Positions 1-6,583 of a stretch of DNA of 10,636 nucleotides are shown here, piece by piece. The stretch lies in the IMG/VR virus record IMGVR_UViG_2534682295_000015, positions 1-10,636 of that record; one strand, 5' to 3'. The position numbers were made by a program, and so were the translations under genes. Origin of the DNA: a virus. Lineage: Duplodnaviria; Heunggongvirae; Uroviricota; Caudoviricetes. Positions within the stretch are counted from its first letter, which is position 1. Every line of letters starts with the position of its first letter. A model generated the notes under the pieces. The model was not told where the DNA came from. It did not search any database and saw nothing but the letters and a program-made list of their open reading frames with translations.

Positions 1-115
1 AAAGGCAGAGAAAGCAACTAAAGGAAGCTACATCGTAGGGCATACATCTGTTAACCAGCACGGCAATTTAACAGGAGTTTTTGTTTGCCAAAAATGGAAA
101 GGAGAACCCGGTGGC

Positions 116-868
116 GTGATTGCGGAATGTCATGTTAACTGCCTGATTGAATCAGATGATCAGGCTTATGCAAACGCTGAATTCATAGCAGAGGCTAACC
201 CGGCTACCGTGCTGGAACTGCTGGATGAACGGGAAAGAAACCAGCAATACATCAAACGCCGCGACCAGGAGAACGAGGAGATTGCGCTTACGGTTGGGAA
301 GCTGAGAGTTGAGCTGGGAGCAGCAGAGAACAACCTTATTGATAGTGAATGCCATGTTGCTGAACTGGAAGAAGCGCTACGCGATAAGCAGGCGTTACTT
401 GAAGCATCAGAGAAGCGCATAGCAGAACTGGAAGCCGAACTCGTAAGCCAAACTTACAAGTTGCCACACACGCAGTTTGAACAGATTGCTAACCTCTACG
501 AAATGCAATTTGATGACGGTCGCACTTGTGCCTTTCACACTGATGCGCAAAAGGCTGAGCAATGGCTTCAGGCGTGCGACGGAAACAGGGTTCAGGAATA
601 CGTTAAGCTGGAACGGTTGCAGAATGCGCTGTCTGGCAACTCTCCGGTAACTCCGGATGGTTGGATAAGTTGTAGTGAGCGAATGCCGGATACCAAAACA
701 GCCGTTCTTGTTGCCGTGGAGTTTGACAGGAAAGGTGACTGGCGAATGAAGTGGGCGACTTACATCCCGGGGCATCCTGACGCTAATGATGGGTGGATAA
801 TTCCTGGTGCGTCGTGGAAACCGTCACACTGGATGCCGCTACCAGAACCGCCGCAGGAGGTGAACTGA
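116..868 (+). CDS. Ead/Ea22-like prophage protein with C-terminal DUF551-like domain (possibly 5'-truncated by window edge)
   Basis: 250-codon ORF from GTG 116, with AAGGAG-like SD at about 99-104. The same frame is open back to position 2, so the true start may lie upstream of the window. N-terminal part carries the ...AEFIAEANPATVLELLDE... signature plus a coiled-coil-like E/L/A/K-rich stretch, as I recall for Ead/Ea22-like proteins. C-terminal ~70 aa (WISCSERMPDTKTAVLVAVEF...WMPLPEPP) fits the DUF551 pattern. Stop TGA 866-868 overlaps the next ATG. Confidence 0.6.
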   Translation: MIAECHVNCLIESDDQAYANAEFIAEANPATVLELLDERERNQQYIKRRDQENEEIALTVGKLRVELGAAENNLIDSECHVAELEEALRDKQALLEASEKRIAELEAELVSQTYKLPHTQFEQIANLYEMQFDDGRTCAFHTDAQKAEQWLQACDGNRVQEYVKLERLQNALSGNSPVTPDGWISCSERMPDTKTAVLVAVEFDRKGDWRMKWATYIPGHPDANDGWIIPGASWKPSHWMPLPEPPQEVN

Positions 869-1263
869 TGGAAAATGAAGGCGATAATATCATCACACTG
901 GTGCAGCCAAAGCGCGATGAAGAGAAGCTGCTGAACATTACAGTAACTGGCAGAAAAAACTACACACAACAGAGCTGTAAGCATCGGGCCATTGAGGTTC
1001 ATGAACAGGATCACGTTATCCTGTGCTTGCAGTGCGGATGTGTTGTGGACCCTTTTCAGTATGTTCTGCGGTGTGCGAACGATGGTGAGGCTGTGGTGAG
1101 AGAGATTAGACAGCTTCATAACAGACACGATCAGCTCCGAGAATCTGTTGCCAGCCTCGAGCGTGAAGAAAAGAACACCAAAGCACGGTTGCGGGCAGCA
1201 AGAACTGCAATACTGTATGCGGAAAATGACCTTAAAAATATTGAGCAGAAGGTGAATCAATGA
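868..1263 (+). CDS. Hypothetical phage protein, Cys-rich zinc-ribbon-like segment plus C-terminal coiled coil
   Basis: ATG 868 overlaps the upstream stop (ATGA) and is preceded by GGAGG at 856-860; the ORF-track start at 793 lies inside the upstream gene and is rejected. Product MENEGDNIITLVQPK... (131 aa) contains CKH-x14-CLQCGC and a charged helical tail. No family recognised. Confidence 0.55.
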   Translation: MENEGDNIITLVQPKRDEEKLLNITVTGRKNYTQQSCKHRAIEVHEQDHVILCLQCGCVVDPFQYVLRCANDGEAVVREIRQLHNRHDQLRESVASLEREEKNTKARLRAARTAILYAENDLKNIEQKVNQ

Positions 1264-1343
1264 CCTGGCCTGAAGCATTCGCAAATGTAGGAACAGTAAT
1301 GGCGGTGGTGCTGGTTGTGTATTCGATTTGTCGCTGGAGATAA
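1260..1343 (+). CDS. Possible small single-helix membrane peptide (27 aa), translationally coupled
   Basis: ATG 1260 overlaps the upstream TGA (ATGA). Product MTWPEAFANVGTVMAVVLVVYSICRWR has one hydrophobic helix. Very short, so coding status is uncertain. Confidence 0.3.
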   Translation: MTWPEAFANVGTVMAVVLVVYSICRWR

Positions 1344-1396
1344 AAACGGTTTGCGGGAAAAGGAGAGTTAAGTAGAATTGCTGCGGGTGCTTGAGG

Positions 1397-1432
1397 CTAT
1401 CTGCCTTGGGCATGAACACCAAAGGCAGATAG
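1397..1432. repeat. Imperfect inverted repeat (12-13 bp arms, ~10 nt spacer) at the left edge of the low-GC island
   Basis: CTATCTGCCTTGG (1397-1409) ... CCAAAGGCAGATAG (1419-1432) are near-perfect reverse complements (one extra T). No T-run follows on either strand, so it is not a canonical intrinsic terminator. Confidence 0.5.
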
Positions 1433-1633
1433 AGAAAAACCCACCCGACTATAAATCAAAGTGTATTACCCCCATTTGTTGGACGATGAAATGGGTTTAG
1501 TTAACTATGTCGGTATCGACATGACTAAAACAACCTTAAATTGCTCGATTAATAGACAAGTAGTTTTGAAAGATTAAATTTATGCGATCCGGTATTTTCA
1601 AGGGATAGCCTTTATGAGGTTATCTTATGGGGT

Positions 1634-1662
1634 TAAAACATCAAGAACAGTTGTGTTATAAT
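1634..1662 (+). promoter_or_regulatory. Candidate sigma70 promoter with extended -10 (TGTTATAAT) upstream of the C5-methyltransferase gene
   Basis: TGnTATAAT at 1654-1662, about 33 nt upstream of ATG 1695, with a weak -35-like TTAAAA around 1633-1638. Weak SD-like AAGAGA at 1676-1681. Sequence-based prediction only. Confidence 0.3.
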
Positions 1663-1694
1663 ACATAGAAACTAATAAGAGACGTTGCAACTAT

Positions 1695-2846
1695 ATGAAT
1701 GTAATAGATTTGTTTTCTGGCGTTGGAGGTCTAAGTCTTGGTGCTGCACGTGCTGGATTTGATGTTAAAATGGCAGTTGAAATTGATCAACATGCTATTA
1801 ATACTCACGCAATTAATTTTCCAAGAAGTTTGCACGTCCAAGAAGATGTTTCTTTACTAAATGCAGAAATAATTAAGGGTTTTTTTAAAAACGATATGCC
1901 CATAGATGGTATTATTGGCGGTCCTCCGTGCCAAGGATTTAGTTCAATAGGCAAGGGGAATCCTGATGATAGCAGGAATCAGCTTTACATGCATTTCTAC
2001 CGTTTAGTATCAGAATTACAGCCATTATTCTTTTTGGCAGAAAATGTTCCAGGTATTATGCAAGAGAAATATTCTGGCATTAGAAATAAAGCATTTAATT
2101 TGGTTAGCGGTGATTATGATATTCTTGATCCCATCAAGGTAAAAGCATCTGATTATGGTGCTCCAACTATTCGAACTAGATATTTTTTTATCGGTGTAAA
2201 AAAATCATTGAAGCTTGATATTTCAGATGAAGTATTTATGCCTAAAATGATTGATCCGGTTACTGTAAAAGATGCTTTGTATGGATTACCAGATATTATC
2301 GATGCCAATTGGCAATCAGACTCTGAGAGTTGGCGAACAATTAAAAAAGATCGAAAAGGGGGATTTTATGAAAAATTATGGGGGCAGATCCCTCGGAATG
2401 TTGGTGATACAGAATCGATCGCTAAGTTAAAAAATAATATCATATCTGGATGTACCGGAACATTACATAGCAAAATCGTCCAAGAGCGTTATGCTTCCTT
2501 ATCTTTTGGGGAAACTGATAAAATTTCAAGATCTACAAGATTAGATCCAAATGGTTTTTGCCCGACTTTAAGGGCGGGAACCGCTAGAGATAAAGGAAGC
2601 TTTCAAGCCGTCAGGCCGATCCACCCTTATCATCCAAGAGTGATTACACCAAGAGAAGCTGCTAGATTACAAGGCTTCCCTGATTGGTTTCGCTTTCATG
2701 TAACTAAATGGCATAGTTTCAGACAAATAGGAAATAGCGTGTCACCAATAGTTGCTGAATATATATTAAAGGGGCTGTACAATTTATTAAATAAAAGAGT
2801 ACAGCCCGAATATTTAAACCATAATTCTTTGGAAGTTAGGGTATAA
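1695..2846 (+). CDS. DNA (cytosine-5)-methyltransferase, Dcm-like
   Basis: 383-aa ORF with canonical C5-MTase motifs in canonical order: motif I DLFSGVGG (1707-1730), motif IV catalytic GGPPCQGFS (PCQ at 1926-1934), motif VI ENV (2040-2048), motif X-like RQIGNSVSP near the C-terminus. AT-rich codon usage matches the island. Confidence 0.9.
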   Translation: MNVIDLFSGVGGLSLGAARAGFDVKMAVEIDQHAINTHAINFPRSLHVQEDVSLLNAEIIKGFFKNDMPIDGIIGGPPCQGFSSIGKGNPDDSRNQLYMHFYRLVSELQPLFFLAENVPGIMQEKYSGIRNKAFNLVSGDYDILDPIKVKASDYGAPTIRTRYFFIGVKKSLKLDISDEVFMPKMIDPVTVKDALYGLPDIIDANWQSDSESWRTIKKDRKGGFYEKLWGQIPRNVGDTESIAKLKNNIISGCTGTLHSKIVQERYASLSFGETDKISRSTRLDPNGFCPTLRAGTARDKGSFQAVRPIHPYHPRVITPREAARLQGFPDWFRFHVTKWHSFRQIGNSVSPIVAEYILKGLYNLLNKRVQPEYLNHNSLEVRV

Positions 2847-3803
2847 CCTATAGTATTTATAATAGTTATCCCGTTCATTTTCGTTTAAAGAGAACTCTTC
2901 AGCGGCTGCCTGATATGCTTCTTTATCAGGCAGTTTACTATCTAAATTTATCTTTTCTTTAATTGTTAGTGTTGGTATTGCTATTTCTTGCACGTCTTCC
3001 CAATTTGTTGAATAAAATTGCCAGTTAGAAAGGTCGCATGCCTTAGATAACTCTATATATTCTTGTTCTGAGGAGAAAAAACCTGATATTGTCAACATGG
3101 TATGACTGCCATCATTATATTGATTTAAGGATAATGGGTAATACTGAATCTTATCCTTACGTCCTGAAAGACCACGTTCTATTGCTGATCTAAAAGCGTT
3201 TGTAATAATTCGTATTAAAAGAGCTTTAATCTTACGATCTGAAAGATCTGCATTTGATATCTGAAGATTAAAATCAAGATACTTTTTCCCAAGCAATGAT
3301 TTTAATGAATTAATAAAAGCTTCTTTAAAAATATCTAAACTTTCTCCAACTCTACGTTGGTAATAAGAACTAGGATTTATGGGGAAGGTGACCTTCAAAA
3401 TATCAAAAGAGCTTACTTTAGTACTTAGTAAGTGTATATCATCTAGATCCGTTTGTATTTTTTTCGGGGAGGCATAGTCTAACCATGTTATTGATGGTTT
3501 AGAAAAACTATAATCAAGAATAAAGTCATGAGCTGATATTAGCTTACAATCAATACAATTATAAGGCAAATTATATTTTTGTCTGATGTGAGTAGACTCT
3601 TGTTCTTCGAGAGAAATCATATCAGAAAGAGCGATACGATTATGCATGATTCTAAAATCTTCAAGCATCGGACCACCAAAACCTATATATGTATATTCTT
3701 GAATATTTAGTCTTTTGCTTAAGAGGTTTAGGCTTTCGAGAAAAATCTCTCTATCAATAGACTTATTATGCCTTAAGTGATAGGGAATGTATTGTCCAGA
3801 CAT
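2814..3803 (-). CDS. Hypothetical protein (~329 aa), downstream partner of the GHKL ATPase; function unknown
   Basis: Minus-strand ORF; ATG at 3803-3801 overlaps the upstream TGA (TGATG), with an in-frame GTG one codon further upstream (3806). GAGGTG SD-like sequence about 7 nt upstream. Product MSGQYIPYHLRHNKSIDREIFLESL...EYTYIGFGGPMLEDF... has no catalytic motif I can assign. Its 3' end overlaps the convergent MTase 3' end by 33 bp (2814-2846). Confidence 0.7.
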   Translation of the reverse strand: MSGQYIPYHLRHNKSIDREIFLESLNLLSKRLNIQEYTYIGFGGPMLEDFRIMHNRIALSDMISLEEQESTHIRQKYNLPYNCIDCKLISAHDFILDYSFSKPSITWLDYASPKKIQTDLDDIHLLSTKVSSFDILKVTFPINPSSYYQRRVGESLDIFKEAFINSLKSLLGKKYLDFNLQISNADLSDRKIKALLIRIITNAFRSAIERGLSGRKDKIQYYPLSLNQYNDGSHTMLTISGFFSSEQEYIELSKACDLSNWQFYSTNWEDVQEIAIPTLTIKEKINLDSKLPDKEAYQAAAEEFSLNENERDNYYKYYRLYPNFQRIMV

Positions 3804-5194
3804 CACTTCACCTCTTCAATCACCGTATCAAAGCATTGCATCCCCACATCAGAAGCGCTAGCATCTTCATGTCCAAAGAAATATTTAGATAAAATTTTAA
3901 CATCTTCTTTCTCTCTGGTGAAGATTATTCGTACAGTAGAGCTTTTTTTTACTGGGGTAGGCAGCTTAGGTGTATATCGCCACTCATTTTTGTTTCTATT
4001 AGGGTTGGACCAGTTATTTTTTTTATCTTCTGGAGTTGATTGTGGGGTAATTTCAAATAAAGATTGAGCTTCATGTGACTGAGCTGACTTAAGTAATTTT
4101 TTCCCTTCTTCAAGATGCTCACCTTTCCACTGATTGGTGAATCGAATAAAATGCATCATCCCTTCAATCATTTTATTTCGTACATCATTGTACAATGTAG
4201 AACTAAGATCGACACCTCGTTTCGTTGTTGTTATTGGTAATTTTTCTGGGTTTTTACTGGTAAAGCGAACAACCCCAGAAATTGCTATAAATTGGGTATG
4301 AAACCTTGGTACATTAGCAAAGCCCCAACCTGTGAGATGTGTCTTATCACAATATAGAACAACGCGGTCATTGCAAATGACAGTCCATCCAGCATCATCA
4401 GAACTCCTTTTTTCTAAAACATCATCATTGTCATCTTCTAAATTTTTATAGAAGCCAACAACTAAATCGATATCAACATCGTCTATTTTAGCTTTATATA
4501 TGTATGGTTCTATTTTAGAATGATCAGTTATGATGTTAATCGGATTATGTTCAACAACAACTCCATTTAATTCTATTTTAAATCCTTTTTGAATAATAAA
4601 TGACAATGAGTGTTTTATCTGTAAAAAGAGATCAGTAAGATATGTGCTCTCATTAAATTTTTGTGCCACATTAGAATGGAGTTTTTTTATCTCTATAGTT
4701 GTGCCTGTTGGATTTTTGTTATCATAGTCACTCTCGTGCATCGGTATTTTCCAACCATCACCATCGATCCAATCAGGTGTTATATCTACAGTGAATGCGC
4801 CATCGGGATTATTCGATTGTATTGAGCAATCTCTACCCATTTTAAAAATGGCTCTTTTCATACCAATACCATAGACGCCAACGGTGCCTTCATTTTCTTC
4901 TTCTTTTTGATGGGGTCGTCCCATTTTAAAAGCATATTCTCGGAAGCTTTTAGGGATACCTCCGCAATTGTCTTCTATAATAAAGACATCTTTATTAATC
5001 GTAAGTTTCGCATAAAATCCTTCATATGGTTTTGAAGTTTTTTTTGTGTCTTTTATTGTACGTAAAGCCCCATCGACGCAGTTATCAAGCAGATCAAGTA
5101 TGGCATCGTTTAAGTCGATATCTCGAGTTAGCATACTTACAAAAAATCTTTTACTAGGACTAAAGTCTGCTGTTGGAGTCGTGTTCTCAGTCAT
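3803..5194 (-). CDS. GHKL-superfamily (Bergerat-fold, MutL/MORC/Hsp90-like) ATPase, 463 aa
   Basis: N-terminal region carries the three ATP-binding motifs in canonical order: N-box-like DLLDNCVDGA (aa 34-43, nt 5066-5095), G1 box EDNCGGI (aa 74-80, nt 4955-4975), G2 box GVYGIGMK (aa 106-113, nt 4856-4879). The C-terminal ~300 aa are unassigned. ATG at 5194-5192. Confidence 0.8.
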   Translation of the reverse strand: MTENTTPTADFSPSKRFFVSMLTRDIDLNDAILDLLDNCVDGALRTIKDTKKTSKPYEGFYAKLTINKDVFIIEDNCGGIPKSFREYAFKMGRPHQKEEENEGTVGVYGIGMKRAIFKMGRDCSIQSNNPDGAFTVDITPDWIDGDGWKIPMHESDYDNKNPTGTTIEIKKLHSNVAQKFNESTYLTDLFLQIKHSLSFIIQKGFKIELNGVVVEHNPINIITDHSKIEPYIYKAKIDDVDIDLVVGFYKNLEDDNDDVLEKRSSDDAGWTVICNDRVVLYCDKTHLTGWGFANVPRFHTQFIAISGVVRFTSKNPEKLPITTTKRGVDLSSTLYNDVRNKMIEGMMHFIRFTNQWKGEHLEEGKKLLKSAQSHEAQSLFEITPQSTPEDKKNNWSNPNRNKNEWRYTPKLPTPVKKSSTVRIIFTREKEDVKILSKYFFGHEDASASDVGMQCFDTVIEEVK

Positions 5195-5246
5195 AATTTA
5201 CTCTCTATGTGTTTGGGAAAATAAATACCTTAAGTGCAAATTGTTG

Positions 5247-5274
5247 ATTTTAAACGCTTCGCATGCGAAGTCAA
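5247..5274 (-). promoter_or_regulatory. Candidate sigma70 promoter of the GHKL operon (TTGACT - 16 nt - TAAAAT on minus strand) with an embedded 14-bp palindrome
   Basis: Reverse complement of 5240-5280 reads ...cgTTGACTtcgcatgcgaagcgttTAAAATcaacaa... : -35 TTGACT (plus 5269-5274), 16-nt spacer, -10 TAAAAT (plus 5247-5252), about 50 nt upstream of ATG 5194. The perfect palindrome CTTCGCATGCGAAG (5257-5270) fills the spacer and overlaps the -35. Confidence 0.35.
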
Positions 5275-5368
5275 CGATGTTAAGAAAGAAAGTGCATGTG
5301 ATCTAACAGTATGTTTTTAAAAAAAGATTAGCTTTATGAGAATTCAGGACTGAATCCCGTGAGAGGAA

Positions 5369-5384
5369 AATAACATATGTTATT
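5369..5384. repeat. Perfect 16-bp palindrome AATAACATATGTTATT in the island's regulatory region
   Basis: Read directly: the sequence equals its own reverse complement. Followed by two TTGTTGCA direct repeats at 5383-5390 and 5410-5417. Confidence 0.6.
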
Positions 5385-5693
5385 GTTGCATTGCTGTGTT
5401 GTTTGGGATTTGTTGCACCATTCTGGCGTTGGTATATCTAGTTCGTTGTTCATTTTGTTAATTGTACAACAGGCAGACAACAGAGAGCTTTTAGCCTAGT
5501 TAGCTTACGAAATTAAACAACTAAGATTATCGGCGGGGAGTGGTCACCGCTACTCTTTGGCTAGGAGACTTCAACGCAACCGCACACAACCAGCTTCGGC
5601 GGGTTTTGTTTTTTCCTGGCATTCTGGTTTACAATTTGCGTGCTAGCTTGAACAACTGGCATCTGCTGCACTGCGCCATCGAGAGATTGAGAA

Positions 5694-6293
5694 ATGGCGC
5701 ATATACAACTGGTCAAACAAACTTCTTCTGGTTTACTTCTCCCGGCGACGCCGGAGAGTTGCGATTTTCTGCATCAAATCAAAATAGGTGAGTGGATACA
5801 CGCAGATTTTAAGCGTGTGCGTAACTACGCATTCCACAAGCGTTTTTTCAAACTCCTGCAACTGGGATTCGATTACTGGACTCCGGTCGGTGGGGCGATC
5901 ACGCCTCGCGAACGAGAACTGCTGTCTGGTTTCGTTGATTACCTGTGCGAATCAGTTGGTCGGGAACACACGCCAGCCCTGAGTGATGCCGCAGAGCAAT
6001 ACCTTAACACCGTTGCGACTCGTAGAACCCGGGATACGGCGTTGCTAAAGTCGTTTGAGGCTTTCCGCGAGTGGGTAACCATTCAGGCCGGATTTTACAC
6101 CGAGCATATTTATCCGGACGGTAGCCGTGGGCGTCGGGCAAAATCCATCGCTTTTGCGAATATGGACGAAGTCGAGTTTCAGCAGGTTTATAAATCTGTA
6201 CTGAATGTGCTGTGGAACTGGATTCTGTTCCGTAAATTCTCCTCTCAGGAGGAAGTTGAAAATGTGGCCGCACAACTACTGGAGTTTGCGTAA
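5694..6293 (+). CDS. Conserved lambdoid nin-region protein (199 aa), function unknown; resembles the DUF1367 family as I recall it
   Basis: ORF with ATG 5694, GC content and codon usage matching the phage backbone. Stop TAA 6291-6293 overlaps the next ATG (TAATG). Family assignment is from memory and unverified. Confidence 0.7.
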   Translation: MAHIQLVKQTSSGLLLPATPESCDFLHQIKIGEWIHADFKRVRNYAFHKRFFKLLQLGFDYWTPVGGAITPRERELLSGFVDYLCESVGREHTPALSDAAEQYLNTVATRRTRDTALLKSFEAFREWVTIQAGFYTEHIYPDGSRGRRAKSIAFANMDEVEFQQVYKSVLNVLWNWILFRKFSSQEEVENVAAQLLEFA

Positions 6294-6583
6294 TGGTGAA
6301 TTTACGTAAAGCGGCTAAAGGCCAGATATGCCAGATCAGAATCCCTGGCTACTGCAATCACAATCCCGAAACCTCTGTGCTGGCGCATTACAGGCTGGCG
6401 GGAACGTGCGGAACAGCGATAAAGCCACACGATATGCAGGCAGCGATTGCCTGTAACTCATGCCACGATTTAATCGACGGGAGAGTAAAAACCAGCGATT
6501 ACACCAAAGAAGAATTGCGCCTGATGCATGCAGAAGGTGTTTTTCGCACACAAGAGATCTGGAGAAAGGACGGTTATTTATGA
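6293..6583 (+). CDS. YbcO-like (DUF1364) putative zinc-binding nuclease of lambdoid phages
   Basis: 96-aa product with CQIRIPGYCNHNPETSVLAH...CNSCHDLIDG (CxxxxxxxC ... CxxCH), which resembles prophage YbcO-type proteins as I recall them. Coupled to both neighbours by overlapping stop/start codons. Confidence 0.6.
   Translation: MVNLRKAAKGQICQIRIPGYCNHNPETSVLAHYRLAGTCGTAIKPHDMQAAIACNSCHDLIDGRVKTSDYTKEELRLMHAEGVFRTQEIWRKDGYL

Follow-up and report, generated by a model that had tools for sequence, protein, structure and literature searches.

We examined a 329-amino acid (aa) protein encoded in a 10,636-nucleotide (nt) stretch of a tailed phage genome (Caudoviricetes; IMG/VR record IMGVR_UViG_2534682295_000015, positions 1 to 10,636), the whole of which we call the window. 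The gene for this protein, hereafter the target gene, overlaps the genes for a MORC-type ATPase on one side and a C5 cytosine DNA methylase (Dcm) on the other, and the three make up a module that recurs across bacterial phyla. The genes and their points of contact are as follows.

2814–3803, minus strand: the target gene, 990 nt, 329 aa; predicted class-I S-adenosylmethionine (SAM)-methyltransferase fold, PF20553 (Methyltransf_35), WP_000016656.1 'O-methyltransferase'
3803–5194, minus strand: the partner gene, 463 aa, a MORC-type GHKL+S5 ATPase with a ~130-aa helical tail; WP_000138556.1 'ATP-binding protein'
1695–2846, plus strand: Dcm, C5 cytosine DNA methylase; Pfam DNA_methylase 2.6e-61, PDB 3g7u E=1.3e-254
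3801–3814, minus strand: coupling junction (Shine-Dalgarno sequence, ATPase stop, target ATG), from reading of the sequence and a junction survey of 78 loci
2814–2846, no strand assigned: convergent Dcm/target overlap, a 33-bp tail-to-tail coding overlap

The target gene is clearly real, with a Pfam match at E=2e-89, a PHROG match at E=1.7e-154 and a family of ~2,100 cluster representatives at 50% identity. The coordinates given for it in the original prediction are exact, and we add that it is read on the minus strand, with its start codon at 3803–3801 and its stop codon at 2816–2814. The listing of open reading frames (ORFs) also offers a longer alternative start, a GTG at 3806 one codon upstream; we took the ATG as the start because both RefSeq and the family alignment, which begins M-S-G-G, favour it. 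The ATPase stop codon TGA occupies 3805–3803 and shares base 3803 with the target ATG (GTG AAG TGA TG), as the original prediction had noted, and a Shine-Dalgarno sequence, GAGGTG at 3814–3809, lies 5 nt before the ATG within the ATPase coding sequence. We then fetched 80 related loci, one per species, basing counts on 79 and junctions on 78 of them. The two genes overlapped in 61 of the 78 loci, by 4 nt (ATGA) in 56, by 1 nt in three, which is the class of the window, and by 8 nt in two, and they lay within 6 nt of each other in 74. Given this conservation, the overlap is no chance feature; the target gene is tightly and, as had been proposed, apparently translationally coupled to the ATPase gene, and this arrangement is conserved across phyla. 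Most likely, the target protein is made in fixed proportion with the ATPase and works in complex with it. The tail-to-tail overlap with Dcm also recurs in other convergent loci (for example, L006, L011 and L026 of the survey).

The surveyed loci span Proteobacteria, Cyanobacteria, Clostridia, Verrucomicrobia, Acidobacteria, Chloroflexi, Latescibacteria, Poribacteria and others. A gene for a MORC-type ATPase was found directly upstream of the target gene, and co-directional with it, in 77 of the 79 loci; one of the two loci lacking an adjacent ATPase gene was cut by a contig end. Likewise, three distant ATPase homologues were chosen independently, and in all three a PF20553 gene overlapped the ATPase stop codon. 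A related C5 methylase gene was present within 7 kb in 65 of the 79 loci and adjacent to the pair in 56. It came first in a Dcm→ATPase→target operon in 31 loci and was convergent downstream, the arrangement of the window, in 26. With a cognate DNA methylase linked so often, the module looks restriction-modification (R-M)-like in the broad sense. Vsr was encoded in 26 of the 79 loci, the window being one of those without it. All-against-all clustering of the ORFs of the 80 loci revealed no further conserved neighbour gene; genes for HNH_5, integrase and GHKL-HEPN proteins were real but sporadic neighbours. Other ORF clusters that recurred near the module were discarded as antisense shadow ORFs inside the three core genes.

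Median identity was 52% for the related Dcm, 43% for the ATPase and 31% for the target protein. Within Dcm, the target-recognition region showed 24–44% identity to the window compared with 64–84% in the catalytic motifs, an intermediate conservation from which no shared recognition sequence could be inferred. PADLOC matched Dcm only to its generic MTase_II, DruM and DrmMII models. The methylase has been found in an in-vivo proteome and is expressed from a prophage in O157:H7.

Residues 1–328 of the target protein align with positions 1–308 of the 309 in the PF20553 model (300.4 bits, cutoff 27), and all 57 target homologues bear the tag of this family ('putative O-methyltransferase'). RefSeq carries the protein as an 'O-methyltransferase' in 172 complete Escherichia coli genomes, including O157:H7 EDL933, PA20 and several O111 strains; the matching PHROG family is unnamed and its function not annotated. 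The protein, described as unknown in the original prediction, had therefore already been placed in a family. Among the best 150 of the ~2,100 family representatives, in which domain fusions were sought, all were stand-alone proteins of ~320–345 aa, and neither NCBIfam nor PADLOC gave a match for the target. Searches of PDB chains yielded nothing beyond chance matches, namely an envelope glycoprotein for the single target sequence (E=1) and an HMG-CoA synthase that the target profile hit over a helical stretch (E=0.015).

An AlphaFold2 model of the target protein, built on 33 homologues (predicted local distance difference test (pLDDT) 89.6, predicted template modelling (pTM) score 0.88), displays the seven-stranded Rossmann core of class-I SAM methyltransferases with its beta6-beta7 hairpin, a ~70-residue helical insert separating beta5 from beta6, and a C-terminal extension of ~85 aa that is likewise helical. 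All structural neighbours of the model are methyltransferases, with identities of 7–15% and template modelling (TM) scores of <=0.43; as modelled, the fold is secure, and the substrate class is not resolvable at such values. Where a new effector fold had been suggested and structure prediction proposed as a check, the model returned an ordinary methyltransferase fold. The nearest neighbours are the RNA methyltransferases Trm1, RsmD-like, RlmI-like, RlmJ and TlyA, and RNA-base N- and C-methyltransferases rank at the top, with O-methyltransferases lower. 'O-methyltransferase' in RefSeq and Pfam appears to be a label by name, a fold-level annotation with no support from experiment and no specific support from structure.

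The following motifs were located in the target gene by aligning 80 orthologues, one per species, with 24–37% identity to the window protein.

3750–3782, minus strand: N-terminal motif Y-H-L-R-x-N-K-x-x-x-R, codons 8–18, from the alignment
3654–3689, minus strand: motif I, Y-I-G-F-G-G-P-M-L-E-D-F, codons 39–50, beta1 and the Gly-rich SAM loop
3606–3608, minus strand: motif II Glu, codon 66, at the end of beta2, from the alignment; strand 61–66 in the model
3474–3485, minus strand: motif IV, W-L-D-Y, codons 107–110, at the end of beta4, from the alignment; strand 104–109 in the model

The N-terminal motif is the most conserved stretch of the family, with Y8, H9, L10, R11, N13, K14 and R18 100% invariant; residues 1–9 have low pLDDT in the monomer model, and the motif may act as a lid over SAM or as an arm that binds the substrate or a partner. 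In motif I, where the model has a strand (38–42) followed by a helix (45–57), conservation reaches 98% for Y39 and D49, 96% for G43 and 87% for G44 (otherwise Ser or Ala). Position 66 is Glu in 79 species and Asp in one; the acidic residue that ends beta2 in this fold binds the ribose hydroxyls of SAM. In motif IV, whose place at the end of beta4 is the expected catalytic or substrate position, W107 and D109 are 100% invariant and position 110 is Tyr in 65 species and Phe in 15. R74 is likewise 100% invariant, D49, Y229, D231 and E283 are 97–98% conserved, and no (D/N)PP(Y/F) motif is present in the protein. From alignment and model, the target protein is predicted to be a class-I SAM-methyltransferase fold with intact cofactor motifs (Gly-rich loop, beta2 acid and beta4 Asp), and conservation across the aligned active sites indicates a constrained catalytic centre and no decayed relic.

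Its RNA methyltransferase neighbours raise the possibility that the target protein is an RNA-directed abortive-infection effector, in which case the ATPase would sense foreign DNA and the PF20553 protein would methylate tRNA or rRNA, on the base or the 2'-O-ribose, and so stop translation. K14, D109, K/R137 and D231 loosely resemble the K-D-K-E tetrad of ribose 2'-O-methyltransferases, and a GHKL-HEPN protein, a predicted RNase, is encoded in some loci. We nevertheless consider an RNA effector unlikely, as a structural resemblance of this kind is common to the whole fold, 21 of the 80 sequences have Arg at the third tetrad position (58 have Lys), the Pfam search found no RNA-binding domain, and linkage to a DNA methylase and Vsr points to DNA.

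The original prediction had expected nuclease activity in the target protein, having seen no PD-(D/E)xK, HNH, PLD, TIR, SIR2 or protease motif by eye. That absence was borne out, and nothing in our searches pointed to a nuclease: Pfam, NCBIfam and PADLOC gave no nuclease, TIR, SIR2, PLD or protease signature for the target and, at E<=1, no nuclease catalytic domain (PD-(D/E)xK, HNH, GIY-YIG, PLD or BfiI-like) in either the target or the ATPase, and nuclease folds were absent from the structural neighbours of both models. A modified form of the expectation would have the target as a cryptic nuclease on a methyltransferase scaffold. Its acidic residues E48, D49, E66, D109, D231 and E283 are invariant or nearly so and are accompanied by H9, and the core module is otherwise without a nuclease; set beside the intact SAM motifs and the structural neighbours, we find this very improbable.

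The partner protein gives a Pfam HATPase_c_3 match, and its Bergerat motifs (D34xxxN38xxD41G, D75xGG and G106xxGxG) are invariant. Together with a conserved LPxTTTK325RG loop, it combines the Bergerat-fold ATP-binding motifs and the S5/transducer domain with conserved Lys by which MORC/paraMORC proteins are recognized. Its last ~130 residues are helical, and no nuclease fold was found in the protein. Its closest structural relatives are the DNA-compacting MORC and SMCHD1 modules; MORC-type ATPases dimerize and clamp DNA. In the N-box, DxxxNxxDG, an invariant Asp (codon 34, in 36 of 36 sequences) takes the place of the usual catalytic Glu, a substitution that may make ATP hydrolysis slow or regulated.

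These properties bear on two alternatives. In the first, the ATPase is the output, entrapping or compacting unmethylated DNA or recruiting nucleases (Vsr, HNH, GHKL-HEPN), and the PF20553 protein is a non-catalytic adaptor that senses SAM or reads sites. This would suit the better conservation of the ATPase (43% versus 31% median identity), its DNA-compacting relatives, the accessory nucleases of some loci (Vsr 26, HNH_5 6, GHKL-HEPN 8) and the survival of an intact ATPase gene in the strain F6294 described below. It seems doubtful to us, however, since the invariant D109 and the conserved polar residues beyond the SAM pocket (Y8, H9, R11, N13, K14, R18, R74, Y229, D231 and E283) point to catalysis and an accessory nuclease is absent from most loci. 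In the second, the module is a repair or mutation-avoidance accessory to Dcm and Vsr, with a MutL-like ATPase and its partner aiding very-short-patch (VSP) repair of the T:G mismatches left by deamination of 5-methylcytosine (5mC). We regard this as quite unlikely: two thirds of the loci, the window included, are without Vsr, MORC-type proteins outscore MutL in structural comparison of the ATPase, VSP repair offers no obvious task for a SAM enzyme, and location in prophage defence hotspots with a sporadic phyletic spread fits a conflict system better.

Two kinds of accessory gene were seen beside the module in other loci. In eight of the 79, a second GHKL protein of 546–610 aa, absent from the window, is tightly linked to Dcm. 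Its C-terminal ~200 aa match PADLOC PD-Lambda-5_A and, in L033, Pfam Hypoth_Ymh (a HEPN family), a paraMORC-HEPN architecture that was described by Anantharaman et al. 2013 and predicted to act like PrrC/RloC. In six loci, the module adjoins a Cys-rich protein of ~240–360 aa whose HNH_5 matches are marginal to significant; these neighbours echo the paraMORC1-HNH association set out by Iyer et al. 2008 (PMC2292703). Their positions within the survey loci are given here.

Second GHKL protein: L024 8061–9824, L025 8602–10347, L028 1021–2853, L029 9385–11076, L033 3837–5477, L035 9246–10964, L041 195–1892, L045 5640–7397
HNH_5 protein: L021 9661–10461, L025 4597–5253, L037 9657–10364, L062 8720–9808, L075 8099–8827, L090 8823–9593

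The three genes of the window sit in a low-GC island (1500–5400, no strand assigned; ~31–37% GC within lambdoid prophage DNA of ~50% GC) between the Ead/Ea22-like region and the DUF1367/YbcO/Q genes; relative to the phage genes, those for the ATPase and the target lie on the other strand. The module is carried by lambdoid, P2-like and Pf prophages, and in a Cronobacter prophage the triad occupies the P2 portal/gpA hotspot. In chromosomal islands, it adjoins type I HsdR/AAA_15-21 genes and an McrA-like gene. A Pfam census of 138 flanking genes yielded R-M, helicase, conjugation and phage genes alongside housekeeping genes. The 13.6-kb filamentous Pseudomonas inovirus PfAC20 (L094, PP058144.1) carries the triad in the order ATPase, target, Dcm at 280–3711, and a second, short ORF at 5438–6082 that is annotated as a DNA cytosine methyltransferase.

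A census of 5,426 complete E. coli genomes recovered Dcm in 172 and the ATPase/target pair in 173. The sole discordant genome was that of O157:H7 F6294 (L093, NZ_CP038372.1; 3866–4369 of the locus, corresponding to 1695–3435 of the window), in which one deletion has removed Dcm and cut the target gene down to its first 123 codons, now a RefSeq pseudogene without the C-terminal two thirds; the ATPase gene is intact. This pattern, a single event and a single contiguous deletion, would fit a Dcm that can be lost only along with the target gene.

Context and census bear in turn on the idea that the module is purely a modification cassette, anti-restriction or epigenetic, in which an ATPase-loaded PF20553 enzyme would add a second protective DNA mark beside 5mC, allowing phage or host DNA to escape other restriction systems, and nothing would be toxic. 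The module has two genes of methyltransferase fold without any nuclease, orphan methylases are often found in temperate phages (the window itself has an N6_N4 methyltransferase gene at 7707–8765), and in cyanobacteria the pair persists without a linked Dcm. Yet no DNA methylase is known to need a MORC-type clamp ATPase, and the ATPase and PF20553 genes run opposite to the phage early genes, as is typical for morons expressed in the lysogen and unlike lytic anti-restriction genes. Many loci, moreover, are found on chromosomes, in R-M or defence neighbourhoods, the operon orders (methylase first or convergent) mirror those of R-M systems, and the co-deletion in F6294 fits dependency better, though weakly. 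A pure modification role has, in our view, a small chance of being correct.

We favour a different reading, which we hold to be an even call: in an R-M-like module with Dcm, the PF20553 protein would be complexed with the MORC-type ATPase and act as the SAM-dependent subunit, either as output or as reader. Since neither partner has a nuclease and no other neighbour gene is conserved, the target protein is left as the candidate output subunit. The original prediction of a likely effector stands to that extent, by elimination; the protein may instead be a reader or adaptor. The mechanism might run as follows. Temperate phages carry the three-gene module as a moron, and it also occurs in defence islands. 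Dcm, which is present in most loci and in O157:H7 is expressed from the prophage, would place 5mC on the cell's own DNA. The ATPase/PF20553 complex would examine DNA, and ATP-driven clamping would be licensed where the mark is absent. The PF20553 subunit would supply a SAM-dependent step, either reading the target site as a type III Mod subunit does or acting as the output by methylating or otherwise alkylating nucleic acid. The core module encodes no DNA cleavage domain, and any cutting would fall to accessory or host nucleases, such as Vsr in one third of loci, HNH proteins in six and GHKL-HEPN proteins in eight.

Several observations weigh against this R-M-like reading. Among loci with full flanks, at least eight, six of them cyanobacterial, contain the pair and no related Dcm within 7 kb; because such loci exist, either lack of a linked Dcm does not necessarily make the pair lethal or Dcm is encoded elsewhere. 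In Nostocales (L013, L015 and L019, a Scytonema and two Nostoc, and L007/L008), the pair without Dcm within 7 kb recurs at one and the same position amid NDH/Mrp antiporter-subunit genes, a housekeeping NDH synteny common to three of the Dcm-less loci. This synteny suggests vertical inheritance, possibly with a domesticated role or one reliant on an unlinked Dcm. What F6294 contributes is one contiguous deletion. No nuclease or classical effector domain was found in either protein, and the fold gives no substrate class (TM <=0.43, identity 7–15%). Neither protein is basic (median pI 6.3 and 5.7), neither the target nor the ATPase matches any family in PADLOC-DB v2.0.0 (2023) at E<=1, and our literature searches found no experimental characterization of either. 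A possibility that takes the lack of a nuclease at face value, and that we consider fairly unlikely, is a nuclease-free immune system, in which the MORC-type clamp would load the PF20553 enzyme onto unmarked DNA and the invader would be disabled by aberrant methylation or alkylation of its DNA, or the infected cell arrested by an RNA modification.

The target protein may be the functional partner, and perhaps the effector, in a restriction-like module of unusual make-up. Should this module serve immunity or addiction, it would represent a widespread system of R-M-like type in which the half other than the methylase lacks a nuclease, and the combination of a methyltransferase-fold enzyme with a MORC-type ATPase could reveal a new way of discriminating or neutralizing foreign DNA. 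It would then also offer a tractable system, in bacteria, for studying the cooperation of MORC ATPases with cytosine methylation. The nuclease-free version, if true, would add a new effector chemistry to bacterial innate immunity and a prokaryotic example of the MORC/DNA-methylation partnership of eukaryotic silencing. In the meantime, the RefSeq label 'O-methyltransferase', which is now propagating, is to be treated as a fold-level annotation only.

Two candidate promoters flank the module, in a region where a promoter and terminator scan gave matches no more numerous than expected by chance.

5247–5274, minus strand: candidate sigma-70 promoter of the ATPase/target operon, TTGACT-16-TAAAAT; consensus match only
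1633–1662, plus strand: candidate extended -10 promoter upstream of Dcm, TTAAAA-18-TATAAT with TG; consensus match only

The remainder of the window is phage DNA. Upstream of the island, in the phage early region, lie a gene for an Ead/Ea22-like + DUF551 protein (116–868) and, overlapping it, a 156-aa ORF without a Pfam match (793–1263). Downstream of a Q-like antiterminator gene (6460–7134), the second phage methylase mentioned above (7707–8765) is of the N6_N4_Mtase family and has a DPPY motif; it is followed by genes for tRNA-Met(CAT) and tRNA-Arg(TCT) at 8806–8881 and 8962–9038, the equivalent of the CAT tRNA being annotated as tRNA-Ile in strain PA20. Past the tRNA genes, ~1.4 kb of ~55% GC (9220–10636) holds only short ORFs (<=151 aa, on both strands) and no obvious gene.

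The PF20553 family was already listed in Pfam and PHROGs. R-M operons that encode MORC/paraMORC GHKL ATPases alongside Dcm, Vsr and HNH were predicted by Iyer, Abhiman and Aravind 2008 (PMC2292703). The modules set out there resemble ours in having a GHKL+S5 ATPase with a conserved C-terminal extension, linkage to Dcm, Vsr and occasionally HNH, and a sporadic distribution suggesting lateral transfer, whereas their neighbourhoods pair the ATPase with superfamily II helicases and nucleases (restriction endonuclease fold, HNH, HKD or TIR). The window ATPase could not be assigned to one specific family among paraMORC1-5. Modules of a C5 methyltransferase with HATPase_c_3/HEF_HK plus Response_reg_2 proteins, described by comparative genomics only (Bellieny-Rabelo et al. 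2021; PMC8011034), share with ours a C5 methylase, a GHKL protein derived from paraMORC, a small partner gene that is Rossmann-like and often Vsr or HNH. There, however, the partner is receiver-like and the GHKL protein has an extra HEF_HK and HATPase_c, in contrast to the full SAM-methyltransferase fold and single GHKL+S5 unit found here. A methyltransferase-fold partner is mentioned neither in the accessible text of PMC2292703 nor in PMC8011034.

Compared with Trm1, RsmD, RlmI and RlmJ, the target protein has the same seven-strand Rossmann fold, Gly-rich motif I, motif II acid and motif IV Asp-aromatic pair. It differs from them in its low similarity (identity 7–14%, TM <=0.43), its unique YHLRxNK motif, the ~70-aa beta5-beta6 insert, the ~85-aa C-terminal extension and the lack of (D/N)PP(Y/F), and there is no sign of a housekeeping RNA substrate. 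Among R-M systems, the NTP-dependent type II systems CglI, NgoAVII and BceSIV combine a C5 methylase with a two-subunit complex in which a non-nuclease NTPase activates its partner; there, a helicase-like NTPase is teamed with a nuclease, whereas here a MORC-like motor is teamed with a methyltransferase-fold protein that has no nuclease motif. Methyltransferase-fold subunits that work with an ATPase are known from type III R-M (Mod/Res) and from BREX (PglX/BrxC), and BREX, too, was without an obvious nuclease when first described. Unlike in those systems, Res, PglZ, BrxC and BrxL are absent here, with no PADLOC match, and the marking of self falls to a separate Dcm and not to the complex's own methyltransferase.

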